From an uncultured Methanosarcinales archaeon (lineage in GTDB: Archaea > Nanobdellota > Nanobdellia > Woesearchaeales > DSVV01): a stretch of 64,000 nucleotides of DNA. The notes beneath the pieces are model-generated. The model was given only the letters and a program-made list of their open reading frames with translations, had not been told where the DNA came from and did not search any database. Below are positions 4,235-61,233 of this stretch, one piece after another; within the stretch, counting starts at the first letter, position 1, and each line of letters starts with the position of its first letter. A program made the position numbers and the translations under genes. Location of the stretch: NCBI GenBank assembly GCA_964452935.1, contig CAYVNO010000004.1, positions 5,519 through 69,518 of the forward strand, in the 5' to 3' direction.

Positions 4235-6019
4235 TTAAAAATCCCTCGGTTCGTGAAATGTTAAAGGAGATCTGTCATGACCTAACCCTTTTCTATGTTG
4301 TAATTCTTTTATGTGTTTGAATTTTGTTTTTATTAATCTTTGCAAGTTATCTGTAACATCTTCCAGTAATAAGGAAAAGTGTTCTCCCCCAAGGAAGTGT
4401 GGCAGAATAACATAGTCTGCACCTGCGTTGTATAATGTTAGTGCTTCATCTATGTGCATTGCTGTAACAATCACCATTGCGTTTTTGTTTTCTTTTTTTG
4501 TTCTTTTGATTAAGATTAATGAAGTTGTTTCATCAGGGGCTGTTGATATTACCATATTTACTTTTTTTAGATTTATTTCTCGTAGGACATCTGGACTTCC
4601 ACAATCCCCATAGATGCAGGATATCTTTCTTTTGATTAATTCCCTAATTATTTGTGGATTATAATCTATAACTAATATTTCTTTTTTTAGGTGTACTAAT
4701 TTTTTAAGAATACTGTACCCAGTTCTATCATAACCGCAGAGAAGAACATCTATTTCTTCTCTATCTGGCATGTATTCTAAATGGTTTCTTTTTTTAGTCA
4801 TGTTTTCGAATAATGTTAGATCTTTTGAGAATATGGAGAATAACTTTTTCTCGTATTTGATCATATAGCTTGTTGTTGAGATAGATATTACTGCTAATAG
4901 GATTGTTATTGAGAAGATTTCATTACTAATGTGATTTAGAGCTAGACCATGTGCTACAATTATTAATGAAAACTCGCTGATCTGTCCTAACGAGAGTCCT
5001 GTAGGGAATGCTACCTTTTTCTTGTAACCAAATATACTAGTTACAATGAATATAATTAATGGTTTTAGTATTAGGATGAATATTAAAAAGATAAATAAAG
5101 GTAGTAAAAGGTTTTCAAATCCTACAAAGGATAGCTGCATGCCTAGTGAGACAAAGAATAGAATAGCAAAGAAGTCTCTCAATGATTTTACTCTGCCAAT
5201 TATTTCAATACTATAATGTAAGTTACCAAGTATAACTCCTGCAATGAATGCTCCAATTGCGATTGAGAATCCTGTCCACTCGAAGAATAGTGCGAAAAGG
5301 AAACATACTGATAATGCTCCCATAAATAATAGTTCACGAGACTTTGCTGCAAATTTGAATATTTTTGGGAGCAGATATGTACTTATTGCTATTGATAATC
5401 CTATTACAACTGCTCCTTTTATGATTTGTAGGATGAATATTAGGATTGAGAATTTTCCTACAAAAGATAGTGCTAATAGGATGAATATTGCTAATACGTC
5501 TTGCATTAATAATATACCTATGACTATTCTTCCGTGTAGTGTGTCTAGTTCTCGTCTATCTGAGAATACTTTTAATACAACCATTGTGCTACTGAATACA
5601 AGGATTATTCCTAAGTATATAGCATGGATTTTTGAGTACCCTAAAAGAAGAGCTATTAAAAACCCCGCAGGGAATAATAACAACATTTGTATTACACCAC
5701 CCATTGAACTTACAAACTCAACATCTTTCAGTCTTTTGAAATCAATTTCTAATCCTACAATGAATAATAAGAATGCGATACCTATCTCTGATAATGTGAA
5801 GATTAAATCCTTGTTGCTGATTAAAGAAGATACTGCGTGAGTGTTTACTAATCCTTGGAAATTACCTGTTGATAATATATAAGTTAAAACTGGACCTAAA
5901 AGTAGTCCTGCTAAAACATATGCAGGAATCATTGGTTGCCTATATTTTTTTGCAATGAAAGCTATTGCAGTAGCTAAGATCATAATAATTCCAATGTTGA
6001 GGAATATTGTGTTTTGCAT
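4235..6019 (-). CDS. CPA2/Kef-type cation:proton antiporter with C-terminal RCK (TrkA-N) domain
   Basis: About 12 TM helices followed by a Rossmann-like VLLCGYDRTGYSILKKL ... VIDYNP segment. Confidence 0.8.
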   Translation of the reverse strand: MQNTIFLNIGIIMILATAIAFIAKKYRQPMIPAYVLAGLLLGPVLTYILSTGNFQGLVNTHAVSSLISNKDLIFTLSEIGIAFLLFIVGLEIDFKRLKDVEFVSSMGGVIQMLLLFPAGFLIALLLGYSKIHAIYLGIILVFSSTMVVLKVFSDRRELDTLHGRIVIGILLMQDVLAIFILLALSFVGKFSILIFILQIIKGAVVIGLSIAISTYLLPKIFKFAAKSRELLFMGALSVCFLFALFFEWTGFSIAIGAFIAGVILGNLHYSIEIIGRVKSLRDFFAILFFVSLGMQLSFVGFENLLLPLFIFLIFILILKPLIIFIVTSIFGYKKKVAFPTGLSLGQISEFSLIIVAHGLALNHISNEIFSITILLAVISISTTSYMIKYEKKLFSIFSKDLTLFENMTKKRNHLEYMPDREEIDVLLCGYDRTGYSILKKLVHLKKEILVIDYNPQIIRELIKRKISCIYGDCGSPDVLREINLKKVNMVISTAPDETTSLILIKRTKKENKNAMVIVTAMHIDEALTLYNAGADYVILPHFLGGEHFSLLLEDVTDNLQRLIKTKFKHIKELQHRKGLGHDRSPLTFHEPRDF

Positions 6020-8618: not shown

Positions 8619-9713
8619 TTACTCAAACTTAGCTATAAATTCTGGAGAAGGTGCTTGTGATTCTGCGAAAGTAACTTTTCTTAGGTAGCCATTTGAGGGG
8701 TGTTTAACAAAATCTGGTTCAGATTTACATGCGGAGTAGAAATCTTGTCTTTTTACAATGTCTCTAACTACTGCTAGGAATGTTCCTGAGAGATATGATG
8801 TTTGTCTTTTATTAGGCATTGATTCCATTCCAAATCCTGGGTCTCCGTGAAAGTATTTCCAAACTCCTTCTTCAATTAAGTCATATGATCTTCCTTCTGC
8901 TTCTGCTCTCCTTAAATAATTAGAAACCCTATCAGCTAGTTCTTCATCTTGTTCTGTTAGGCTTGAGATTCTTTCTTGTTCTAGTTTATCTCTTTGTCTT
9001 TGTTGATATTCTTCTAGTTTACCAGATAAATGGCTACCCATAGTATTATAACTCCATAATATCCATCCATCAAATTCATTCAAATCTTGACCATCTCCTC
9101 TGCCTTCAATGTTTTCTGTTAGTCCCCTGTAAATTGTTCTTCTTTCATCCTTGTCTAGGTCAGATACAAAATCATTATGAGCAGGCTCATAGAGAATTTT
9201 ACATAGTTTATCTATAAGTTTTAAAGAAGCAGAGAAATTAATAAAGGTTGTTTTTGTATGATGCTCTCCTTCCTCTTCTTCATCTTCTTGTGGGGATATG
9301 TCTAATAAACCCCAATTGTATAATTGGATCATTACTGCGTATTTTTTTGCTGTTTCTGGGTCAACTTCATCTAGTTCTGGAAAATGTTTTGTTAAGAATG
9401 TTTGATCTCCCTCAACAAAGTCTGTTATTTCTTGTTTATCATAAGGATAAGTAGTACGATATGCTAAATCTTCAATTACTGGAGCAAGACCTTCAACACC
9501 TGGTGAGTCTAAGATATCATAAATACCAGGATGTGTTCTTGCTTTTTCTCCCAAAACTGGTTCTCCATCTACGGATTTTGTTTTGCCCATAATTTCACAA
9601 TAGATTTTATCAACTATGTCAAAGTTTTCTAGTAAGAATCCATATATTGTTTCTAAGGTTTCTGTATTTGTCATTGAAGAAGGGAATAGAATATCTTTTT
9701 TAAAGTTTGCCAA
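8619..9713 (-). CDS. Lys-poor acidic orphan protein P2 (about 351-364 aa)
   Basis: Clean ORF with an EDEEEEGEHH acidic run. The start is TTG 9713 (track) or, more likely, ATG 9674, about 45 nt downstream of the TTATAAAT box at 9719-9726. Confidence 0.6.
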   Translation of the reverse strand: MANFKKDILFPSSMTNTETLETIYGFLLENFDIVDKIYCEIMGKTKSVDGEPVLGEKARTHPGIYDILDSPGVEGLAPVIEDLAYRTTYPYDKQEITDFVEGDQTFLTKHFPELDEVDPETAKKYAVMIQLYNWGLLDISPQEDEEEEGEHHTKTTFINFSASLKLIDKLCKILYEPAHNDFVSDLDKDERRTIYRGLTENIEGRGDGQDLNEFDGWILWSYNTMGSHLSGKLEEYQQRQRDKLEQERISSLTEQDEELADRVSNYLRRAEAEGRSYDLIEEGVWKYFHGDPGFGMESMPNKRQTSYLSGTFLAVVRDIVKRQDFYSACKSEPDFVKHPSNGYLRKVTFAESQAPSPEFIAKFE

Positions 9714-9741
9714 ATGAGTTTATAAATGTTGTAACTTACTG

Positions 9742-9858
9742 CAACACTACTGCGCTCCGTGTCTTGGTTAAATACAACATTGTCAGTAACTTTTAGCTTA
9801 AGTTATGGTGTTATAAACGGACTTCGCTTGGCAGTGGCGTTATTGGAGTTGCTCATAA
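9742..9858. ncRNA. Structured repeat element, copy C1 (candidate small RNA or cis-RNA; strand unresolved)
   Basis: Closing helix 9742-9752 / 9830-9840 (11 positions, 1 mismatch, 1 G-U). Conserved blocks are TGCGCTCCGT, CAGTAACTTTTAGC and CGGACTTCGCTTGG, followed by the 21-nt tail GTTATTGGAGTTGCTCATAAC (9838-9858). Confidence 0.55.
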
Positions 9859-9971
9859 CACTGCGACGCTCCGTTCTCGTATATCATTCTTCCTTATCAG
9901 TAATTTTAGCGACGTTTGATGAACATTTAGAAGACTTCGCTGGGTGGCAGTGTTATTGGAGTTGCTCATAA
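9854..9971. ncRNA. Structured repeat element, copy C2 (tandem to C1)
   Basis: Perfect 10-bp closing helix 9854-9863 / 9946-9955. Same blocks (TGCGACGCTCCGT, CAGTAATTTTAGC, GACTTCGCTGGG) and an identical 21-nt tail at 9951-9971. Confidence 0.55.
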
Positions 9972-11333
9972 CTCTTTCAGTTCTTGGACTAATTTCAGAA
10001 CAGCAGTTTTTGCATCTTCGAATAACATAAGTGTGTTATCATAATCAAATAATTCATTCTTTATTCCTGCGAAGCCTGGGCTTAGACTTCGTTTAATCAT
10101 TAAAACTGTTTTTGCTTTATGTGCGTTTAAGATTGGCATTCCGTAGATTGGTGAGGATTCTTCTTTTGTTGCTGCTGGATTTACCACATCGTTTGCTCCG
10201 ATTATTATAACAACATCTGTGTTTTGGAATTCTGAGTTAATGGAATCTAAGTCTTTCAGTTGTTCATAAGGAACATTTGCTTCTGCTAGTAAAACATTCA
10301 TATGACCTGGCATTCTTCCAGCGACTGGGTGAATTGCGTATGAAACTTTTATTTTCTTCTTTTGTAATAAATCTGCTAGATCTCTCACAGCATATTGTGC
10401 TTGTGCAACTGCCATCCCGTAGCCTGGAACAAAGATTACTGATGATGAGTTATCTAGGATTAAAGCTGCTTCATCTGGGGATGTTTCTTTTATATTTGTG
10501 TATTCTGAGTCATCTTTTTTAGTTTCTTTTTGTCCGAATCCACCGAATAAAACATTAACTAAAGATCTGTTCATTGCTTTGCACATTATTCTTGTTAGGA
10601 TAATTCCTGAAGCGCCAACTAATGCTCCGCTTATTATTAGTACTGGGTTTTTCAGTACAAAACCTGCAGCTGCAGCTGCTAATCCTGAATAGGAATTTAA
10701 CAAGGAAATAACAACAGGCATGTCTGCTCCTCCGATTGGAGTTACTAAAAGTATTCCTAGAATTAATGTTACTGCGATTAGTAACCACAATAATAGAATG
10801 TTATTTGTTAAGACTAGGTAAACTGCTAAGGTTATTACTCCAATAAATAAGATTATATTTAGAATATTATTTCCTTTGAATAGGATAGGTCTGCTGTTGA
10901 TTAATCCTTGTAATTTTAAGAAAGCAATTATACTTCCTGTGAATGTAACTGCACCAATGATTACGCTAATAATTGTTGTTGTTAGGTCTCCTGTTGTTAA
11001 AATAGGATTTCTTAAGAAATATGATGATGCAACTAGTACTGATGCTCCCCCACCCATTCCGTTAAAGACAGCAACCATCTGAGGCATAGCTGTCATCTTT
11101 ACTTTTTGAGAGATTATAGCTCCAATTAAACCACCGATAATAAAACCTGCGATTATGTATGGGAATCCTATTGTTTCCATATTAACTATTGTTATAGTTA
11201 CTGCTATTAGCATAGCGATTGCTGATAGAAAGTTTCCTCTTCTTGCTGTTCTTACATGAGTCAGTTGTTTAATTGCAAAGATAAATAGTACTGCTGCAAA
11301 TAAATACACTGAGTTTGTGATTAGTTCATTCAT
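9966..11333 (-). CDS. pntB: NAD(P) transhydrogenase subunit beta
   Basis: Multi-TM N-terminal half and a soluble C-terminal dIII domain (AIHPVAGRMPGHMNVLLAEANVPY, GANDVVNP). Confidence 0.9.
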   Translation of the reverse strand: MNELITNSVYLFAAVLFIFAIKQLTHVRTARRGNFLSAIAMLIAVTITIVNMETIGFPYIIAGFIIGGLIGAIISQKVKMTAMPQMVAVFNGMGGGASVLVASSYFLRNPILTTGDLTTTIISVIIGAVTFTGSIIAFLKLQGLINSRPILFKGNNILNIILFIGVITLAVYLVLTNNILLLWLLIAVTLILGILLVTPIGGADMPVVISLLNSYSGLAAAAAGFVLKNPVLIISGALVGASGIILTRIMCKAMNRSLVNVLFGGFGQKETKKDDSEYTNIKETSPDEAALILDNSSSVIFVPGYGMAVAQAQYAVRDLADLLQKKKIKVSYAIHPVAGRMPGHMNVLLAEANVPYEQLKDLDSINSEFQNTDVVIIIGANDVVNPAATKEESSPIYGMPILNAHKAKTVLMIKRSLSPGFAGIKNELFDYDNTLMLFEDAKTAVLKLVQELKEL

Positions 11334-11611
11334 TTTTTCCTCTTGAACATTTTTAACATTCTATCTGTGACCATGTAACCGCCAGCAACATTAATTGTTG
11401 CCATTATTATTGCAAACATTCCTAGAATATTTGCTAAATTTGGTGATGAATCTGGAATACATAATAAAGCTCCGACAATTATTATGCCTGAGATTGCGTT
11501 TGTACCTGACATAAGTGGTGTGTGTAAAGTAGGAGGTACTTTTGTGATTATTTCAAATCCTACAAAGATTGCTAGTACGAATAATGCGAATAACGCAAAT
11601 AATGAAATCAT
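11330..11611 (-). CDS. pntA: NAD(P) transhydrogenase alpha subunit, membrane part (split PntA2)
   Basis: 93 aa with 3 TM helices. Sits between the alpha-1 and beta genes with 4-nt overlaps on both sides. Confidence 0.85.
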   Translation of the reverse strand: MISLFALFALFVLAIFVGFEIITKVPPTLHTPLMSGTNAISGIIIVGALLCIPDSSPNLANILGMFAIIMATINVAGGYMVTDRMLKMFKRKK

Positions 11612-12675
11612 TCTTTAACCTCTGATTTTGTTATAACTTCATCATCTTTGTTATTGATAAATTCTGTTAAGAAGTTAAGAATATTTTTAGAGTACATCTC
11701 TGTTGAGTGAATTGCTACAGTAGCAGGAATATTTGCTTCTCCGATTATTGTTACTCCGTGTTTTGTTATTGTTTTGTTTAATTTGCTAACTGCACAGTTT
11801 CCTCCTGCTTCTACTGCCATATCTACAATAACAGAACCATTCTTCATAGTCATAACCATATCTTCTGTTATTAAGACAGGAGCTCTTCTTCCGGGGATTA
11901 ATGCAGTAGTTATTACAACATCTGCTTGTTTAATTCTTTTTTTAACTTCTTCTGCTTGTTTTCTTAAAAATTCTTTTGAAGGACCTTTTGCGTAGCCGTT
12001 TTTGTCTTCTGTGTTGTCTTCAAATTCTACTTCTATAAACTTAGCACCTAGACTTTCTACCTGTTCTTTAACTGCTGGCCTTATATCTGATGCTTCAACT
12101 TGTGCACCTAATCTTCTTGCTGTTGCGATTGCTTGTAAACCTGCAACACCTGCTCCGAGAATAACGACTTTTGCTGGATGTATTGTTCCAGCAGCAGTCA
12201 TTAATAATGGAAATAGTTTTGGTAAAGCGTTAGCAGCCATGATTACTGCTTTGTATCCTGCAATATTACTTTGAGAGGTTAATGAATCCATTTTTTGTGC
12301 TCTTGATATTCTTGGGATTAAATTCATTGAGTAAAGTTTGATTTTATTTTTTGATGCTAGTTTTATTATATCTGATTCTGTTTGCGGAATTAAAGATGAT
12401 ATGAATGTTGCACCTTTTTTTGCTGAGTTTAGCTCTCGTTTAGTTGGCGGATTTACTTTTACAATAATATCTGCCCTTGAGAAGACTGTCTTTAAATTTT
12501 TAGAAACTTTTGCACCTGCTAGTTGGTATTCTTGGTTAGAATGTTGTGAGAGCTCTCCGGCCCCATCTTCAATGAACACCTTTAGTTTGAGCTCTGTTAT
12601 TTTCTTAACAGTTTCAGGTGTAGCAGCCACCCTTGTTTCATTCTTCTTTGTTTCTTTTGGGATTAGGATGTTCAC
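11608..12675 (-). CDS. pntA: NAD(P) transhydrogenase alpha subunit, soluble dI part (alanine-dehydrogenase-like)
   Basis: Rossmann motif VVILGAGVAGLQAIATARRLGA and operon context with the other pnt genes. Confidence 0.9.
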   Translation of the reverse strand: MNILIPKETKKNETRVAATPETVKKITELKLKVFIEDGAGELSQHSNQEYQLAGAKVSKNLKTVFSRADIIVKVNPPTKRELNSAKKGATFISSLIPQTESDIIKLASKNKIKLYSMNLIPRISRAQKMDSLTSQSNIAGYKAVIMAANALPKLFPLLMTAAGTIHPAKVVILGAGVAGLQAIATARRLGAQVEASDIRPAVKEQVESLGAKFIEVEFEDNTEDKNGYAKGPSKEFLRKQAEEVKKRIKQADVVITTALIPGRRAPVLITEDMVMTMKNGSVIVDMAVEAGGNCAVSKLNKTITKHGVTIIGEANIPATVAIHSTEMYSKNILNFLTEFINNKDDEVITKSEVKE

Positions 12676-13551: not shown

Positions 13552-14331
13552 ATGGAAATAATAAGCAAAATAAGCAAAGGGAGTAAGATGGACCAGATAT
13601 ATATCCCAAAGAATAGGGTTGGACTAAGTACTGGTAGTTATGTAGTTGTTAAACCTTTGCAGAAGAAGAAAAAGTTCACTAGAAAACCATTTTTTTATAA
13701 TTTAAAGTATTTGGAACCGTTGAAATTAAAGTTTGTGAATGAAATTTTTGATGTCTTAAGTGATTATAAATATAGAAATATAATAATAACTGGTTCTTTC
13801 TTGGATAAAGGATTTAATTTTAATGATATTGATGTTTTATTGATTACTAATGATGAAGTTAGTGGTGTTGAGAGGATTTTAGAGAAAAGGATTGGAGTTA
13901 ATGTCCATATAACAGTTATTGATAATAAAAGTTTGATTAAAGGGTTAAATACTGATCCTTTGTACCAGATGATGTTGAGTAGGTGTGTTTCAATAAGAAG
14001 GTTTGTCTATAGAATAAAGAATGAGCTAAATTATAAAATATTAGATTTACATCTGTTGAAAAGTAAATTATTGATAGAAAGTTTTGATCATTTAACTGGC
14101 AGAGAGAAGTATGAGATGTTGAGGAATATGATTTCTATTGCATTGTTTATTGAGGGAAAAACTGTAAGTAAAAAGAGTATAGATTTAATAATAAATAAAT
14201 TATTCGGAAAAAATACGGATAAAGATATAAAAAATAACATAATTGACGACAAAAGAAGATTTCTAAGAAGATACAGTAGATTTTATAAAAGATTAGAAAA
14301 TACTATTTTGAATGGTACAAAACAGAAATAA
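13552..14331 (+). CDS. AbrB/SpoVT-like N-terminal domain fused to a minimal nucleotidyltransferase (MNT-like) domain
   Basis: QIYIPKNRVGLSTGSYVVVKP is a swapped-hairpin AbrB pattern. IIITGSFLDKGFNFNDIDVLLI is the GS...DxD NTase motif. Confidence 0.6.
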   Translation: MEIISKISKGSKMDQIYIPKNRVGLSTGSYVVVKPLQKKKKFTRKPFFYNLKYLEPLKLKFVNEIFDVLSDYKYRNIIITGSFLDKGFNFNDIDVLLITNDEVSGVERILEKRIGVNVHITVIDNKSLIKGLNTDPLYQMMLSRCVSIRRFVYRIKNELNYKILDLHLLKSKLLIESFDHLTGREKYEMLRNMISIALFIEGKTVSKKSIDLIINKLFGKNTDKDIKNNIIDDKRRFLRRYSRFYKRLENTILNGTKQK

Positions 14332-14653
14332 GTTAATTGATTTATTTATCGGAAATATTTCGAATGCAATAGTTCATGAGATTCTTAGTAAGGCTATTGA
14401 TGATGAAAATATAAGGAATCATTACAGCAAAGAGTTAAAGAATAGTTTTGATAAAGCAAATGAGTATAGGAGTAAAATTAATCCTGTTAATAATGTGCTT
14501 CCTGACAAAGATTTAGAATATATTAAGAATAAGATTACAAGGAAGGTTAATTCAGAGTTAGGATTAAGGATTTCTAAAGGTTATGAGAATATTGATTTAG
14601 GATTAGTTAATATTGAAGTAGAGAAAGTATTGAAAGAGATGAAGATAATTTAG
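14312..14653 (+). CDS. Helical hypothetical protein, possible partner of the NTase gene
   Basis: 113 aa; overlaps the upstream gene by 20 nt. No motif recognised (no clear RxxxxH HEPN motif). Confidence 0.4.
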   Translation: MVQNRNKLIDLFIGNISNAIVHEILSKAIDDENIRNHYSKELKNSFDKANEYRSKINPVNNVLPDKDLEYIKNKITRKVNSELGLRISKGYENIDLGLVNIEVEKVLKEMKII

Positions 14654-15150: not shown

Positions 15151-15489
15151 TTAATACTTAAACCTTTTTTCGTAATCCTTATGAGAAAACCATTCAAGAA
15201 TAATACTCATTATTGTAACTTCATCACTTTCTATCATATAGATAATTCTCCAAGCGTTTGGTAAATCATATTTCCACAAATTTGTGATACTATATTTCTT
15301 TTTGTATTCTTTTGGCCATAATTTCTTTTGAATCTTTGTCCCACATGTTGGATCTTTCTTGAGATCATTAATTGCCCTGTCTATAAAGGAGTACAGTTGT
15401 TTGTCTTCAAATTTTCCAGATTTAAGTAATCCGAACTGTTTTTTCAATTTTTGAGAGATGAATCCCACTTGCATACTCTTTTTATTCAT
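15151..15489 (-). CDS. RelE/ParE-superfamily toxin-like protein (paralog of 49464..49841)
   Basis: NLWKYDLPNAWRIIYMIESDEVTIMSIILEWFSHKDYEKRF has the RelE-like WR..Y and HKDY pattern. Overlaps the upstream small gene by 4 nt. Confidence 0.65.
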   Translation of the reverse strand: MNKKSMQVGFISQKLKKQFGLLKSGKFEDKQLYSFIDRAINDLKKDPTCGTKIQKKLWPKEYKKKYSITNLWKYDLPNAWRIIYMIESDEVTIMSIILEWFSHKDYEKRFKY

Positions 15490-23746: not shown

Positions 23747-24745
23747 TTATTTCCCCAGTATTTCCCTTAGTTTATTTTCTAGTTTATTTTTATCAGGTAG
23801 ATATAATTTATATTTTGAAACAAATAGTTTATTTGAAATTCCACCCAAGGCAAACTTCACTAGGACTTCATCTTTATCGGCAGCTAAGATTATTCCAATC
23901 GGATTTTTATCTCCTTTTGAGTTTTCCTCTTCTTTAAAATAATTTAGATAAAGATTCATTTGACCAACATCTTGGTGATTTACTTCACCAATCTTTAAAT
24001 CAATTAATACAAAACATCTTAAAATTCTGTGGTAGAAGACTAAGTCTATGTAGAAATGTTTATTTCTGAATGAAATTCTGTATTGCCTAGATACAAATGT
24101 GAATCCTTTTCCTAACTCTAATAAGAACAATTGAAGATTATCAATTATTTTTTGTTCTAACTCTTTTTCTGAATATTTGTAGTTTTCTGGGATGCCTAAG
24201 AATTCTAAAATGCATGGTTCCTTCATAATATCTTTCTCTTTTTTGATAATCTGACCTTTTTTGGCCATTTCTAGTACTCCTTTTTTGTCCTTACTCAAAG
24301 CAATTCTGTGAAATAAAGCAGAATTCTTCTGTCTTCTCAGTTCTCTTACACTCCATCCCTCATTTATACATTGTTTTTCATAAAAACTTCTTTCTAGATC
24401 GTCGTCTAGTGTTAATATTTCGGTGTAATGGCTCCAACTCAATTTTCCAGACAGTGTCTGGAATTTTGGATATTTGAGATAAAACTCTCTGATAAGATAA
24501 ATGTTGCTTTGGCTAAATCCTTTACCATACCCACTTCTAAGATCTTTGGAGAGTTTTGAAAGAAGTGAAGATCCATAATCTGCCTTTATTCTTCCTTTTT
24601 GCTCATATTCCACTATCTGTCTTCCTATTTCCCAGTAAGTTTTTACCAATATGTTGTCTACAGCTCTAAAAGCTTGTCTTCTACCCTTTTCTAATAAATT
24701 CCCAATATCATTTATTAGATTTAAATATTTTTTATTTTTCATCAT
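23747..24745 (-). CDS. YhcG/DUF1016-family PD-(D/E)xK nuclease
   Basis: FYIDLVFYHRILRCFVLIDLKIGEVNHQDVGQMNLYLNYF is the family core. ATG 24745/24742 follows GGGTGAT; the track start at 24817 is probably too long. Confidence 0.8.
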   Translation of the reverse strand: MMKNKKYLNLINDIGNLLEKGRRQAFRAVDNILVKTYWEIGRQIVEYEQKGRIKADYGSSLLSKLSKDLRSGYGKGFSQSNIYLIREFYLKYPKFQTLSGKLSWSHYTEILTLDDDLERSFYEKQCINEGWSVRELRRQKNSALFHRIALSKDKKGVLEMAKKGQIIKKEKDIMKEPCILEFLGIPENYKYSEKELEQKIIDNLQLFLLELGKGFTFVSRQYRISFRNKHFYIDLVFYHRILRCFVLIDLKIGEVNHQDVGQMNLYLNYFKEEENSKGDKNPIGIILAADKDEVLVKFALGGISNKLFVSKYKLYLPDKNKLENKLREILGK

Positions 24746-25862: not shown

Positions 25863-25865
25863 AGA

Positions 25866-25900
25866 GGTGTGAGTGTTAACTTATTTATATATCTCACACC
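25866..25900. promoter_or_regulatory. 8-bp inverted repeat bracketing the TATA box of the radical SAM operon
   Basis: GGTGTGAG (25866-25873) and CTCACACC (25893-25900) flank TTATTTATATAT. Confidence 0.45.
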
Positions 25901-25992
25901 AGCCTGTCTAGTGGGTTTTGTCCAGTGAGGAGAATGGCTGAGAATGTAGAATTCTGGTGTTTAAGAGCAGTGGACAAATGGTGTCTAGTGGG
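25896..25992. repeat. Nested direct/inverted repeat cluster (possible sRNA or multi-site operator)
   Basis: TGTCTAGTGGG occurs at 25905-25915 and 25982-25992. ACACCAG (25896-25902) pairs with CTGGTGT (25954-25960). TTGTCCAGTG (25918-25927) pairs with CAGTGGACAA (25968-25977) with 1 mismatch. Confidence 0.4.
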
Positions 25993-26007
25993 GAAAGATT
26001 TAAATAT
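25993..26007 (+). promoter_or_regulatory. BRE/TATA promoter (GAAAGATTTAAATAT)
   Basis: One-mismatch copy of the GAAAGATTTATATAT consensus, upstream of the RHH gene. ACTTAGTA x2 and GTACCC...GGGTAC repeats follow. Confidence 0.55.
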
Positions 26008-26088
26008 TACTTAGTATATACTTAGTACTACTTTGTACCCAATAACCAGATAGAGCATTAGGGTACTCAAAAATCACAGGTGATTTTT

Positions 26089-32464: not shown

Positions 32465-33421
32465 ATGTATCTTGAAAAAAGAGAATTAAATGGAAAAATC
32501 AAGTATTTTCTGTCTCATTCATATAGGGAGGGCAAGCAAGTTCACAAATTTAGGAAATATCTTGGTCAAGATCTGAAACAAGGTAAGTTAAAGGAACGAA
32601 TGAAAATTGCTGAAAAGCTTATTCTTGAAGAGATCCACAAATATACCATAATAAATGATCCATTGAATATTAAGCTTTCGAAAGAAGATATAGAATCAAT
32701 AAAGAAGATTGAAGCAGAAATACCTTTGAAGATAAGCCATCTTTCTGAAAAAGACTGGACAGCATTCTCAGAGATATTTACTTATAACACCAATGCAATA
32801 GAAGGAAGTAAGCTCAACAAAAAAGAGGTTATAGATTTACTTGAAAAAGATAAATGGCCAAATAAATCAAAAGAAGATATTGCAGAAGCTTTTGGTGTTG
32901 ATGAAGCTATAAGGTTCATTAGGAAGACAAAAGAGCATATTTCTATTGATTTAATTAAAAAAATTCATAAGATTGTTTTTAAGAATTCTAAATCTTTTGC
33001 AGGAAAATTGAGAAAGAAAGGAGAAGAAGTAGTTGTTATGGGTGCTGGAGGGAAAGTAGTTCATGAGGGTGCTCCACAAACCAGAGTAAATCACCTACTT
33101 AGAGAATTAGTTAAATGGTATGAAAAAAATAAGAATGAATATCCTGGATTAATACTTGGAGGAGTTGTTCATAATCAATTTGAGAATATACATCCGTTTG
33201 CAGATGGAAATGGTCGTGTAGGTAGAATATTGTTGAATAATATTTTGATAAAACATAAGCTGCCTCCGATAAATATTAATTTTAAAAACCGAGTAGAATA
33301 TTATAAGACTTTACAGGAATATGAGAATAATCAGAATATTAAGCCAACTATTGACTTATTCTTGAAAGAGTATAAATCACTGAAAAAACAGCTAGGTGTC
33401 TACAGAAATAAGAAAAAGTAG
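32465..33421 (+). CDS. Fic-domain protein (AMPylase family) with N-terminal inhibitory-helix motif
   Basis: Complete HPFADGNGRVGR motif (HxFx[DE]GNGRxxR) and TNAIEG matching [ST]xxxE[GN]. Lys-rich, host-like composition. Confidence 0.9.
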   Translation: MYLEKRELNGKIKYFLSHSYREGKQVHKFRKYLGQDLKQGKLKERMKIAEKLILEEIHKYTIINDPLNIKLSKEDIESIKKIEAEIPLKISHLSEKDWTAFSEIFTYNTNAIEGSKLNKKEVIDLLEKDKWPNKSKEDIAEAFGVDEAIRFIRKTKEHISIDLIKKIHKIVFKNSKSFAGKLRKKGEEVVVMGAGGKVVHEGAPQTRVNHLLRELVKWYEKNKNEYPGLILGGVVHNQFENIHPFADGNGRVGRILLNNILIKHKLPPININFKNRVEYYKTLQEYENNQNIKPTIDLFLKEYKSLKKQLGVYRNKKK

Positions 33422-33426
33422 TCACC
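33392..33426. repeat. Downstream hairpin of the Fic cassette (overlaps the Fic stop codon)
   Basis: CTAGGTGTCTACAGAAATAAGAAAAAGTAGTCACC shares GGTG-N-CTACAGAAATA and GTAG-N-CACC with the upstream hairpin. Confidence 0.6.
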
Positions 33427-33450
33427 TGATAAGAGGTTAGATAGCCCTGT

Positions 33451-33533
33451 GCGGACTTGCGTTGAATAGCAACGCTCGCTACTCAATTTCGAACCGCAGT
33501 CCTAAGGCCCAGAACCCATATATAAACCTTAGG
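33451..33533. ncRNA. GC-enriched hairpin cluster (candidate structured RNA segment; strand unresolved)
   Basis: GCGTTG-aatag-CAACGC (33459-33475) is nested in GCGG...CCGC (33451-33497). CCTAAGG...CCTTAGG lies at 33501-33533. No ORF. Confidence 0.4.
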
Positions 33534-33568
33534 GAGGCATATTTACTCCTTATTAGTGATTACAAAGC

Positions 33569-33583
33569 GAAAGATTTATATAT
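33569..33583 (+). promoter_or_regulatory. BRE/TATA promoter GAAAGATTTATATAT
   Basis: Exact consensus copy 21 nt upstream of ATG 33604, so the mRNA is likely leaderless or short-leader. Confidence 0.65.
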
Positions 33584-33603
33584 GAGATAGTTAGAAATAT
33601 AGT

Positions 33604-39132: not shown

Positions 39133-39250
39133 TGACAATATTGCGCTCCGTTCTAGTGTGTAATATGCCTTATTAGTAACTTTTAGCTTATTTTATATAA
39201 AAATTACTGACTACGCTTGGCAATATTGTCAATAAAGTTGATAATACTTG
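39133..39250. ncRNA. Structured repeat element, copy C3
   Basis: Perfect 12-bp closing helix TGACAATATTGC (39133-39144) / GCAATATTGTCA (39220-39231). Blocks are TGCGCTCCGT, TTAGTAACTTTTAGC and GACTACGCTTGG, with tail AATAAAGTTGATAATAC followed by TTTTT (39251-39255). Confidence 0.55.
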
Positions 39251-39294
39251 TTTTTATGGAAAACATTATATATTAAATACTGTTAGAAAGAGAC

Positions 39295-45861: not shown

Positions 45862-46748
45862 AAATATTTATTTAATAATAAATAAAGAACTAACACAAAC
45901 ACAAAAATAATTGCTAAAATGATATATCCCCCATATGAATTAGTTTCTGCTAATTCTTCTGTTAGAACTTTCTTTTCACCAATAGTGAATTGAGGTAGTT
46001 CTCCTTCAGAGATATGTCTCTCTGTTAGCTTTCTGTGGTCAAAATCTTGTTCTGAAGATTTACCCATACTACTTAGAATCTCATTATCGGATCTCTTTTG
46101 TTCATCTGCTTCATATTCTTCCCAACCAACACATGGATGTCCTTGACCTTGGTTTCTTCTAATCCTAGTTTCTATATCTCTTGCATTTACTCCTGAACCA
46201 ACAAGAGGCCTTAAAGATTTCATGTGTTTTCCACAAAAATATCTTCCGCAATAATCGCATTTTTTTATGTCTTCTTTTTTTTCACACGTATGGTTGTTGC
46301 ATTTTTTCTTGTCTATAACTGATTCTGATGGTTTATCCTCTTTCTTGGATTTTGAATTACTAGAAATATGTACAACTCCAGGTCCAACACTAGGTCTAAT
46401 CTTTTGTTTAATGGAATCATGAACTATTTCAAAAACAATATCATGATCCTTTTCCGTGTCATGAATATATTTTACAATTTTTTCCATGATATGTGCTACT
46501 TCGTGAGATGCAGTATCTTCGATCTCTTCAATAGTCATTTGTTTAAGATTATTGTTGGAAGTACAAATAAAACCGGTATCTAGATGTATGTGTGCTAGTT
46601 CATCACCTTCTTGACACTCCCATTTTTTATCCCAAAATTTTACTTTTACTGGCTGGATACTAATAACTTCACAAGATTTTCTAACTATTTCTAGAAATTT
46701 AGCCTGTTTAATTCTTAGATTCATATATTCAAAATCTTTCTTTACCAT
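45858..46748 (-). CDS. SprT/WLM-like HExxH metalloprotease domain + AN1-like zinc finger + C-terminal TM anchor
   Basis: DTASHEVAHIMEKI (HExxH), the cysteine array CNNHTCEKKEDIKKCDYCGRYFCGKH ... GHPC, and the C-terminal helix YIILAIIFVFVLVLYLLL. Confidence 0.55.
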   Translation of the reverse strand: MVKKDFEYMNLRIKQAKFLEIVRKSCEVISIQPVKVKFWDKKWECQEGDELAHIHLDTGFICTSNNNLKQMTIEEIEDTASHEVAHIMEKIVKYIHDTEKDHDIVFEIVHDSIKQKIRPSVGPGVVHISSNSKSKKEDKPSESVIDKKKCNNHTCEKKEDIKKCDYCGRYFCGKHMKSLRPLVGSGVNARDIETRIRRNQGQGHPCVGWEEYEADEQKRSDNEILSSMGKSSEQDFDHRKLTERHISEGELPQFTIGEKKVLTEELAETNSYGGYIILAIIFVFVLVLYLLLNKYF

Positions 46749-47982
46749 TTAAATCTTCTTTATATTTTACTTTTTTATAATCTATCTCAAATAACCCATC
46801 CATGTTTAAAGGAGCATAATTTATTAATTCTACTCCTACATTTATCTGTTTGGTTTTACCGTTGATAAATGGGTATTTCTTTGTGTTATTGTTGTGATGA
46901 TGTCCACAGATAGTCCATCCGTTCCACTCTTCAGGGATATCTCGTGGGTCGTGAACTAATAATAAATCTTCACCACCATATTTAATAATCACTTTGTCAT
47001 AAAATCTTATTTTCTTTGATCTATCATGATTTCCTTTTATGAATATAATATTTCCATTTAGTTTTTTTAACCAATAACTTGTTTTTTTGCTTCCCTTACC
47101 AAATGCCATATCCCCCAGAAATAATATGGTATCCCCTTTGTCTACTGTGTTGTTCCAGTTATTGATTATCTTTTTGTTCATTTCTTTAGTATTTTTGAAT
47201 GGCCTCTTACAATATTTTATGATATTTGTATGATCTAGGTGTAAATCACCTACTACGAATACTTTTTTCTTTCTAAAAAAATTAAGTAAACTGCTGAATA
47301 TTCCTTTTTCTTCATTTAAGTCTAAAGTATCTATCGAAATAGATTTATCAGTAGTATTTTCCTTCAACAATGAAAATGATTTTTGCATTATTCTTTTGCT
47401 TTTTGCTTCTCTTCTGTTCAATAGCCTATTTTGTAAGAAATCATATTCATACAAAATTCTACTATTCTTTATAATTGCTATTCTCATTAAAGTGTATTGG
47501 TGGTTTGGTTTGGGCTTATTGTTGATGTACCTTTTTATTGATTTGAATTTATTTTGAGGAATTCTCATAGCGATTGTGATGTGGTAATAAAATTTTCTAA
47601 CTAGATCATGTGGTTTTAAGTAACAATATTCTTTTAGAGTATTAGATAATTTCCACCTAAAGTCATCTAATTGTTTGTCTGCCTTAACATTGATATAAAC
47701 TACTTTTGAATCTTCAAATGTTTCATATCCCTCTACAATATAATTCATTAGATTATACTGCATACATAATTTCTTGAAATCAGAAACTAACTTCCTTTGA
47801 TTTCTTGTAGTAAAAGGTCCTGCTAGAGAAATGTGGGGAACAGGCCTATGTTTTCTTGTTCTTTTCAGTCTGAATTTATAATCAACTTCTTTAATCAAAC
47901 TTTTTACTTCATATTTTGCTTTCCCAAGAATCCTTAGTTCTATCAAGTATCTATTCATATAGTGTAGTATCTTGCTGAACAT
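46729..47982 (-). CDS. Fusion of a 2H (LigT-like) phosphoesterase domain and a calcineurin-like metallophosphoesterase domain
   Basis: Two HxS/T motifs (HISLAGPF, HITIAMRI) about 85 aa apart, then GDLHLDH, GDMAFG, GNHD and GHHH. Confidence 0.75.
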   Translation of the reverse strand: MFSKILHYMNRYLIELRILGKAKYEVKSLIKEVDYKFRLKRTRKHRPVPHISLAGPFTTRNQRKLVSDFKKLCMQYNLMNYIVEGYETFEDSKVVYINVKADKQLDDFRWKLSNTLKEYCYLKPHDLVRKFYYHITIAMRIPQNKFKSIKRYINNKPKPNHQYTLMRIAIIKNSRILYEYDFLQNRLLNRREAKSKRIMQKSFSLLKENTTDKSISIDTLDLNEEKGIFSSLLNFFRKKKVFVVGDLHLDHTNIIKYCKRPFKNTKEMNKKIINNWNNTVDKGDTILFLGDMAFGKGSKKTSYWLKKLNGNIIFIKGNHDRSKKIRFYDKVIIKYGGEDLLLVHDPRDIPEEWNGWTICGHHHNNNTKKYPFINGKTKQINVGVELINYAPLNMDGLFEIDYKKVKYKEDLNGKERF

Positions 47983-60993: not shown

Positions 60994-61233
60994 TTGCCAA
61001 AATTGCCTAGGTTGACTGGAAAAGAGGTAGCTAAAGTAGTAGAAAAATTTGGTTTTGTTTATAGTCATACAACTGGTAGTCATATGATCTACAAACATTC
61101 TGATGGAAGAAGAACAACCATCCCACATCATGCTGGAGAAGAGATTGGACCTGGTTTATTGAATAAGATAATAAAAAAAGATTTAGGAATTTCTAGAGAT
61201 GAATTTTTGAAGAGAATTTTAAAGAAAAAATAA
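60994..61233 (+). CDS. hicA: HicA-family mRNA interferase toxin
   Basis: LTGKEVAKVVEKFGFVYSHTTGSHMIYKH; TTG start 5 nt after GAGGTG. Confidence 0.8.
   Translation: MPKLPRLTGKEVAKVVEKFGFVYSHTTGSHMIYKHSDGRRTTIPHHAGEEIGPGLLNKIIKKDLGISRDEFLKRILKKK

Follow-up and report, generated by a model that had tools for sequence, protein, structure and literature searches.

A tandem pair of one non-coding element lies in an intergenic spacer of the archaeal contig CAYVNO010000004.1 (assembly GCA_964452935.1, GTDB Woesearchaeales). Positions 5,519 to 69,518 of the forward strand were analysed; this stretch of 64,000 nucleotides (nt) is referred to as the window, and coordinates given without a contig name are those of the window. 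The spacer (9714-9965, 252 nt) is flanked by two - strand genes, namely an acidic gene and pntB, the latter being part of a pntAA-pntAB-pntB operon (9966-12675). The features of the locus are given below, together with the bit scores under a covariance model built from five copies of the element (R1); P1 designates the helix by which each copy is closed.

8619-9713 (9674 with the likely ATG start), - strand: acidic gene without a Pfam family, 351-364 amino acids, isoelectric point 4.6, aspartate plus glutamate 20%
9743-9841, + strand: copy c1, P1 arms 9743-9753/9831-9841 (11 bp with one A.C mismatch and one U.G), 95.4 bits
9839-9859, + strand: 21-mer GTTATTGGAGTTGCTCATAAC, tail of c1, with box D (AGTTG) at 9847-9851; its last 5 bases begin the P1 5' arm of c2
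9855-9956, + strand: copy c2, P1 arms 9855-9867/9944-9956 (13 positions, 12 paired), 103.7 bits
9952-9972, + strand: 21-mer GTTATTGGAGTTGCTCATAAC, identical tail of c2, with box D at 9960-9964
9966-11333, - strand: pntB (beta subunit of NAD(P) transhydrogenase; Pfam PNTB, E=3e-188), convergent with the element strand

The tandem pair between pntB and the acidic orphan gene had been pointed out in a preliminary description of the window, and it was confirmed by the present analysis; the features were all present, but the coordinates assigned to them were one base too low throughout. The same description regarded the spacer as unusually large and GC-rich. Its GC fraction is indeed raised (0.39-0.415, compared with 0.33 in the window as a whole and 0.21-0.30 in the majority of the other gaps) and its size is among the largest in the window, but neither property is unique to it, as seven other gaps measure 210-283 nt and two others have GC fractions of 0.38 and 0.40. 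The two copies are arranged head to tail with a spacing of 113-114 nt. Both are closed by terminal helices, as had been described, and the distal part of the c2 helix (9855-9864/9947-9956) is a perfect 10 bp, which extends to 13 bp with one G.G mismatch. With respect to the sequence blocks shared by c1 and c2, TGCG..GCTCCGT and GACTTCGCTKGG had been read correctly, but the middle block is CAGTAACTTTTAGC in c1 and CAGTAATTTTAGC in c2, the latter being one base shorter than had been written. The 21-mer occurs exactly twice, and 0/100 shuffles contain it; the ATAAC of the c1 tail is physically the start of the 5' arm of c2, and the c2 tail extends over the final codons and the stop codon of pntB, which is encoded on the other strand (TCA at 9966-9968, hence TGA). 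The interiors of c1 and c2 are strongly diverged, and the half of c2 between boxes A and B (see below) is nearer to copies c4 and c5 than to c1, in agreement with the earlier opinion that the pair is not a recent duplication. A metagenome assembly break was observed exactly inside the c1/c2 pair in contig L037 (1-125), as expected for a repeated element.

The pair belongs to a family, of which seven distinct copies were found in two genomes. A third copy, alluded to in the preliminary description, was located at 39133-39231, and no further copy beyond c1-c3 was detected inside the window with R1. Two copies on which R1 had not been trained (c4 and c5) lie just beyond the window ends in the same genome, so that five copies are contained in about 76 kb. 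The remaining two, L1a and L1b, are diverged copies that are divergently oriented, with a PFOR gene on one side and a small ferredoxin-like gene on the other, in the metagenome-assembled genome (MAG) 'Candidatus Nanoarchaeia archaeon PL23a_bin.67'. The additional copies of the window genome are as follows.

39133-39231, + strand: copy c3, P1 arms 39133-39144/39220-39231 (perfect 12 bp), 104.6 bits; between two divergent genes, one for a DUF11 surface protein (-) and one for glutamyl-tRNA synthetase (GluRS, +)
L037 13596-13705, - strand: copy c4, 82.9 bits; between a DUF58 gene and an AlaX-like gene
L040 15781-15891, + strand: copy c5, 70.9 bits; between an unknown gene and an FKBP26-type gene

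One order of parts is shared by all seven copies, namely P1 (11-13 bp), box A, a stretch of 23-27 nt, box B, a variable segment, box C and the 3' arm of P1. The positions of these parts in the three copies of the window are as follows.

9753-9760 (c1), 9867-9874 (c2) and 39144-39151 (c3), + strand: box A, CGCTCCGT, invariant except for C->A in L1b
9784-9797 (c1), 9898-9910 (c2, one base shorter) and 39174-39187 (c3), + strand: box B, CAGTAACTTTTAGC in c1, half-conserved
9798-9819 (c1), 9911-9932 (c2) and 39188-39208 (c3), + strand: hypervariable segment of 21-23 nt between boxes B and C
9820-9831 (c1), 9933-9944 (c2) and 39209-39220 (c3, GACTACGCTTGG), + strand: box C, GACTTCGCTTGG in c1
39236-39255, + strand: 3' tail of c3, with box D AGTTG at 39236-39240 and then the T-run TTTTT at 39251-39255

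Box A, CGCU(C/A)CGU, comes right after the 5' arm and its first C is the last pair of P1, and box C, (G/A/U)ACU(U/A)CGCUNGG, stands directly before the 3' arm, which is opened by its last G. The two boxes are partial direct repeats (NCUYCGY) and not inverted copies of each other, and in 7/7 copies box A is separated from the ACU of box C by 58, 59 or 60 nt. The stretch of 23-27 nt after box A is fairly conserved among c2-c5 (..UUCUUCCUUGUC..) and is not conserved in c1 or in the PL23a_bin.67 copies. Box B is U-rich, with the consensus (C/U)AG(U/C)AACUUUUAG(C/U) in the window genome and a half-conserved core ..AACUUUUAGC; in PL23a_bin.67 it was read as ACGATTTTTAGC in L1a and CCGATTTGCTAC in L1b (ACGAUUUUUAGC or CCGAUUUGCUAC). 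The identity of the hypervariable segment between copies is essentially random. The pyrimidine content of the interior ranges from 46 to 70% and is high only in c4 and c5, hence it was not taken as a feature of the family.

The pairing of P1 is under selection, as estimated from the alignment of the seven distinct sequences from the two genomes. Standard pairs occupy 94% of the helix cells, against 28-56% when the 3' partner was slid by 1-3 columns; both sides changed in 10/17 pairs, and compensatory changes were found in 9/12 pairs of P1. The covariation score was 0.59 versus 0.22 for shuffles, with 0/500 shuffles reaching 0.59. The P1 sequences are homologous between copies, as exemplified by UGACAAUAUUGC in c3 and AGACAAUAGUGC in c4 (c3 TGACAATATTGC, c4 AGACAATAGTGC) and by UACUGC shared by c1 and c5, and their differences consist of compensated substitutions and small indels by which the register is kept. 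P1 therefore belongs to the element rather than to the host sequence and evolves under a pairing constraint, and we have little doubt that the element is real and has been selected for its hairpin. The converse view, that a functionless duplicated segment is decaying here and that its similarity and complementarity are accidental, is hardly credible: the small size of the family and the origin of most copies in a single genome speak for it, but boxes A and C are identical between the two genomes while the rest is near-random, the spacing is fixed, and the compensated pairs of P1 were matched by none of the shuffles.

Inside P1, the aligned copies show a 3-nt bulge (U-K-G) on the 3' strand, followed by G1-C8' and C2-G7', then by facing pyrimidines (U3 C4 C5 versus C6' U5' U4'), and then by G6-C3', U7-A2' and N8-N1'. 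Box A (GCUCCGU) and box C (ACUUCGCU) together make up this junction. Four of its five pairs are invariant and are therefore uninformative for or against the structure, and the fifth, N8-N1', is U.G in three copies, U-A in two, A-U in one and a mismatch in one. The only change in box A, C4->A in L1b, would make an A-U pair with the facing U5' and may be taken as thin evidence in support of the register. With RNAalifold, no conserved pairs were obtained in the interior except two invariant C-G between boxes A and C, and single-sequence folds of the interior were no better than those of shuffles and mostly slightly worse. The earlier designation as a structured non-coding element is thus borne out by compensatory changes for P1 and the adjoining junction across seven copies and two genomes, but an interior structure was not detectable; the copies may be pictured as an open loop of about 60 nt that is shut by a strong clamp.

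Downstream of P1, the AG(U/A)UG motif (box D) stands exactly 16-20 nt after box C in 5/5 copies of the window genome and in those only (AGTTG in c1, c2, c3 and c5; AGATG in c4), and this fixed offset is the sole solid statement on the tail. A tail hairpin with mutually exclusive pairings had been proposed. The start of the P1 5' arm is partially repeated further downstream, and this repeat could pair with the distal 5-9 nt of the 3' arm, with AGUUG in the loop; visual inspection shows such a hairpin in c1, c2, c3 and c5 and a weak one in c4. The downstream repeat of c1 is the start of the c2 P1, and wherever the downstream repeat departs from the upstream one (five differences), pairing on the + strand is preserved. 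The proposal is correct as a matter of sequence, but it was statistically indistinguishable from chance (p=0.02-0.58 against flank shuffles for the window-genome copies, not significant). Pairing between box B and the tail in the manner of a pseudoknot, 5-11 bp in 5/7 copies (for example AGUAACUUU/GGAGUUGCU in c1 and UUUUAG/CUAAAA in L1a), was individually non-significant and its registers differ. Both pairings are unproven.

The strand was tentatively assigned from the pairs of the helix, five G.U pairs fitting only the + strand model, against one or two A.C cells. The putative transcription signals on this strand include the following candidate archaeal promoter.

9719-9726, + strand: TATA-like TTTATAAA, 24 nt upstream of c1 P1

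A very similar TATA-like string, TTTTATAAAGTTTG (TTTTATAAAG), stands 31 nt upstream of c4; TATA-like boxes are located 20-42 nt upstream of P1, with TTATAAG/ATATTAAT for L1a and L1b. Runs of four or five T come immediately after P1 in c4 and L1a, and in c3 such a run begins at a distance of 20 nt. The open reading frame (ORF) at 9759-9971 that had been mentioned for the pair does exist (70 amino acids), and it is without a Pfam match; the gene callers of the source assemblies predicted no gene at the element sites. A small protein-coding ORF was rejected on the basis of TAA and TAG in box B in two of the three frames and of a spacing that varies by 1-2 nt between copies.

With respect to the neighbouring genes, c1, c2 and c4 are antisense to both, c5 is co-directional with both, c3 is co-directional with the GluRS gene and lies 60-160 nt upstream of it, and L1a and L1b are mutually opposite. 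The orientation is thus unrelated to the neighbours, which argues for independent units. The reading that we lean towards, with a confidence somewhat short of even, is that the copies are independently transcribed small non-coding RNA genes of about 100-125 nt, on the + strand in the window, and form a lineage-restricted multi-copy family. A cis-acting RNA element, serving the flanking genes as terminator, insulator, stabiliser or antisense regulator (such as a - strand structure in the 3' untranslated region of pntB), would find some basis in the location of c1 and c2 directly after the pntB stop codon, with the c2 tail overlapping it, and in that of c3 upstream of the GluRS gene on the same strand. 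It is decidedly unlikely, considering that the position and orientation of the copies relative to their neighbours are inconsistent, that the flanking genes are functionally unrelated, and that the G.U pairs and T-runs point to the + strand, antisense to pntB.

As for known RNA classes, no Rfam 15 family attained its gathering score, whether in the window or over the 111 kb from related loci that partly overlap it, and the earlier failure to place the element in a known RNA family was reproduced, with no hit spanning a whole copy even at E<=10. The sole overlap at this threshold in 9400-10300 was CbSR14 on the - strand, at a noise-level score (12.6 bits versus a gathering score of 172). The whole window and the 111 kb of loci likewise yielded no tRNA. 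A tRNA gene, also of the intron-containing, split or permuted kind, was therefore rejected for the element, ARAGORN and Rfam being negative in the window and GGTTCRAATCC not being found even with one mismatch. Ordinary tRNAs were found by ARAGORN in L046 and L047, which shows that the window lacks tRNAs by chance and not through a failure of detection.

Archaeal box C/D small RNAs (sRNAs), which along with the Y RNAs are the nearest analogues in architecture, resemble the family in being encoded by multi-copy small genes in intergenic spacers, in any orientation and sometimes overlapping ORF ends, and in having a terminal stem that joins the ends, a conserved box inside each arm, a mid-loop element, fixed spacing and variable segments between the boxes. 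They differ in that RUGAUGA (box C), CUGA (box D) and a kink-turn with tandem G.A occur there, whereas the stem-adjoining positions here hold GCUCCGU and ACUUCGCU in 7/7 copies and form no kink-turn. They also carry two 12-nt guides and a stem of a few bp within 50-60 nt, compared with a loop of about 60 nt, a helix of 11-13 bp and a total of about 100 nt here, and no Rfam C/D model matched the elements. TGATGA was found only in the variable segment of c2, and CUGA only on the opposite strand, in 3/5 copies. Box H/ACA sRNAs were rejected as well, there being no conserved ACA after P1 on either strand, a constant rather than variable stem-adjoining sequence and no conserved upper stem. A bulge-helix-bulge motif was dismissed by inspection of the junction (one 3-nt bulge, 2 Watson-Crick pairs and a symmetric 3x3 pyrimidine loop).

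A further likeness, which is architectural only, concerns the Y RNAs, the Ro60-binding RNAs of animals and some bacteria. These share with the family a length of about 100 nt, a long stem formed from both ends, a large, variable and poorly structured loop, a conserved bulged helix next to the stem as the constant part (the protein-binding site in Y RNA), several and often adjacent paralogs, and a U-run after the stem (here in some copies). The conserved helix of Y RNA is GGUCCGA / UUGACU with a bulged C, and the helix of the element differs from it in sequence. Rfam Y_RNA gave no match, and no TROVE/Ro60 gene was found in the Pfam scan, which covered about 70 of the 80 ORFs of the window. We know of no Y RNAs in archaea.

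The distribution of the family was determined by pattern scans followed by scoring with the covariance models. A strict three-block DNA pattern scan of 185,579 species, with one genome each, yielded one real locus and five chance matches. The corresponding scan of JGI metagenomes gave three matches, all by chance and none scoring with the model, and that of viral sequences gave 16, likewise all by chance and none passing the model; R1 had no hit at the 24 chance-match loci. The genome and JGI scans missed the window's own species although c1 and c3 fit the patterns and JGI contigs of the same species exist, and the scans therefore understate the true distribution. Contigs nearly identical to the window are present in several metagenomes. 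The GluRS is of the archaeal/eukaryotic type, and its best database relatives are about 60% identical (58-61%), the named ones being Woesearchaeota or Nanoarchaeota; L21e, Rpb4 and aIF5A are among the gene neighbours. The window is accordingly placed in a DPANN archaeon (Woesearchaeota/Nanoarchaeia) of about 33% GC.

At the loci of relatives, the order PFOR-small protein-acetate kinase is syntenic in L046/L047 (PFOR 72% identical), and only the PFOR-small protein junction is kept in L045. The PFOR-ferredoxin spacer measures 44-97 nt and is empty in the relatives, compared with 280 nt and two copies in PL23a_bin.67. In the GluRS region of three relatives (GluRS 58-60% identical), the upstream spacers measure 51-89 nt and no copy was found within 10 kb. 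An improved model (R2) was run over 240 kb of Woesearchaeal DNA and found nothing else, with no copies at the loci of six relatives; a weak R2 hit in L046 (15.4 bits) was not accepted as a family member. Since the syntenic spacer is empty in the relatives, the copies are lineage-specific gains in intergenic spacers. Judging from the sequences searched, the family, which is unclassified, appears so far confined to two Nanoarchaeia lineages. Such gains are compatible both with a mobile repeat and with small RNA genes of fast turnover; archaeal C/D sRNA genes behave in a similar way.

The main rival reading is accordingly that of a non-autonomous mobile repeat, comparable to a miniature inverted-repeat transposable element (MITE) or PATE, or to a small retro-element, whose hairpin would be needed in a single-stranded DNA or RNA intermediate (cf. 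IS200/IS605-type ends), whose boxes A and C would be recognition sites for a transposase or recombinase encoded elsewhere, and for which any transcription would be incidental. The density of copies in the window genome with orientations unrelated to neighbour genes, the occurrence of both a tandem and an inverted pair, the empty PFOR-ferredoxin spacer and the lack of a copy near GluRS in relatives, the presence in two lineages and in 0/6 other Woesearchaeal loci, the perfect 21-bp direct repeat flanking c2, AAGTTG-like strings on both sides of c1, c2 and c5, and the assembly break in L037 all speak for it. MITEs and REP/PATE-type hairpin repeats are likewise short, multi-copy, intergenic and sporadic, with long-range inverted ends, tandem or inverted pairs and assembly breaks.

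A classical MITE was nevertheless rejected, and the mobile repeat as a whole is considered somewhat doubtful. The terminal inverted repeats (the P1 arms) vary and covary, while the asymmetric subterminal boxes, which are not mutual inverted copies, are constant, and this is the opposite of a classical MITE; the compensatory changes indicate selection for pairing and not for a sequence bound by a transposase. No direct repeat that could be a target-site duplication abuts P1 in 5/7 copies (c1, c3, c4, c5 and L1a), and the 21-bp repeat of c2 overlaps P1. No transposase, integrase, reverse transcriptase, Cas or TROVE protein was found among the scanned window ORFs (about 70 of 80), which are housekeeping genes or unknown (purine and riboflavin synthesis, transketolase, NFACT, thermosome, type IV pilus ATPase, Fic and toxin-antitoxin-like pairs). 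The precomputed Pfam listings of about 40 kb of flanking loci contained no transposase, integrase or reverse transcriptase, so that an autonomous partner was not found in either set, and BLAST against plasmid and phage records gave no match.

Integrons have reportedly been described in Nanoarchaeota (Ghaly et al. 2022), and an attC-type site, that is, a folded single-strand hairpin recombined by an IntI-like integrase, was weighed as a further mobile alternative. Like attC, the element is about 100 nt long with an imperfect long-range inverted repeat, keeps its stem while the sequence of the stem varies, bears AAC...GTT near the ends of c1, c2 and L1a, and adjoins a gene without a known family. 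An attC site is nonetheless very improbable here: the R'' AAC and R' GTT cores, which are obligatory at the crossover point, are absent in c3, c4, c5 and L1b; P1 is a continuous 10-13 bp helix without an unpaired central spacer or extrahelical bases; strongly conserved internal boxes are not a feature of attC; and neither an integrase nor a cassette array was found in the scanned part of the window.

For the small RNA genes, which remain our favoured reading, the following mechanism is proposed. Each RNA would adopt a rod-and-loop form, with P1 joining both ends and the conserved junction closing the open loop. P1 and the junction would serve as a constant handle, giving end protection and a docking site for a hypothetical protein, and the open loop, chiefly its hypervariable segment, would make each paralog specific, whether through antisense or guide pairing or by acting as a decoy. 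New copies would arise through duplication or by insertion into intergenic spacers, and would come to stand there singly or as tandem or inverted pairs. The RNA-gene and mobile-repeat readings are not mutually exclusive. A more specific version, by analogy, is a hitherto undescribed archaeal class of box-defined guide RNAs, in which boxes A and C and the P1 junction would recruit a dedicated protein and the variable segment, at its fixed distance between boxes B and C, would pair with a paralog-specific cellular or foreign RNA or DNA target; the logic is like that of C/D sRNAs or CRISPR RNAs, but the boxes and the partner are unrelated, and we regard this version as unlikely.

Several points weigh against the small RNA genes. 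Transcription, like strand, protein binding and target pairing, is something that we infer, and the promoter and terminator calls are weak because TATA-like and T-rich strings are common in a genome of 33% GC. The partner protein of the handle is only hypothetical. The seven distinct copies come from two genomes in total, and 5/7 of the sequences are paralogs of one genome, so the covariation cells are not independent events. The sporadic distribution (the empty PFOR spacer and the lack of a GluRS copy in relatives) fits a selfish mobile repeat equally well. When targets of the variable segments were searched in about 85 kb of the host genome, which is too little to be informative, exact matches of 11-13 nt were obtained, at chance level, and the duplex energies to 75 translation-start regions were within the shuffle range with one AU-rich exception.

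A covarying helix, two invariant boxes, rigid spacing and a hypervariable segment are together what one would expect to see in a ribonucleoprotein that combines a constant handle with a programmable part. Woesearchaeota, like DPANN archaea in general, have not been cultivated and possess reduced genomes, and to our knowledge almost no non-coding RNAs have been described in these archaea beyond rRNA, tRNA and signal recognition particle RNA. If the copies are transcribed, they would represent a new family of RNAs and perhaps a new system of the guide type, in a clade in which such biology is unexplored; a mobile repeat, if that is what they are, would be one relying on its hairpin instead of conserved sequences at its ends, and for this, too, there is little documentation in archaea. 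In either case, all Nanoarchaeota MAGs and existing metatranscriptomes can be searched with the seven sequences and the covariance model.

Among the other features of the window and related contigs, the acidic gene next to the tandem pair probably starts at ATG 9674, about 27 nt upstream of which stands TTTAAAAA, a pattern typical of leaderless archaeal mRNA. A GC-rich stem-loop of about 85 nt was found at 33437-33517 (- strand) in the 182-nt gap 33422-33603 (GC 0.40), with a minimum free energy of -33.6 kcal/mol (z=-2.1) and no Rfam match at E<=1; it may be another unannotated small RNA. The gap 25863-26079 (GC 0.38) has the strongest - strand folding z-score of all gaps (-3.1). In L046, from another Woesearchaeote, 14330-14460 (- strand) holds two GGGTCRTGGCG repeats, with a T7 run after each; GTTCAAATCC stands before the first repeat, which therefore looks like a tRNA 3' half, and ARAGORN and Rfam call nothing there.

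An intact gene for a YhcG/DUF1016 PDDEXK nuclease is located at 23747-24741 (- strand), and the apparent gap of 800 nt in a simple ORF map arises because its TTG-extended ORF overlaps the next gene. The gene at 46729-47982 (- strand) encodes a 417-amino-acid fusion of a 2H / 2'-5' RNA ligase-like domain and a calcineurin-like metallophosphoesterase, which looks like an RNA-end-healing or repair enzyme. Toxin-antitoxin-like and Fic modules are several for such a small stretch (32465-33421, about 60994-61233 and L036 13499-14968, with two Fic genes); a weak YoeB-like match lies at 15151-15489, a HicB/HicA pair was called in the same-species contig L040, and an RHH+PIN pair is located just left of the window.

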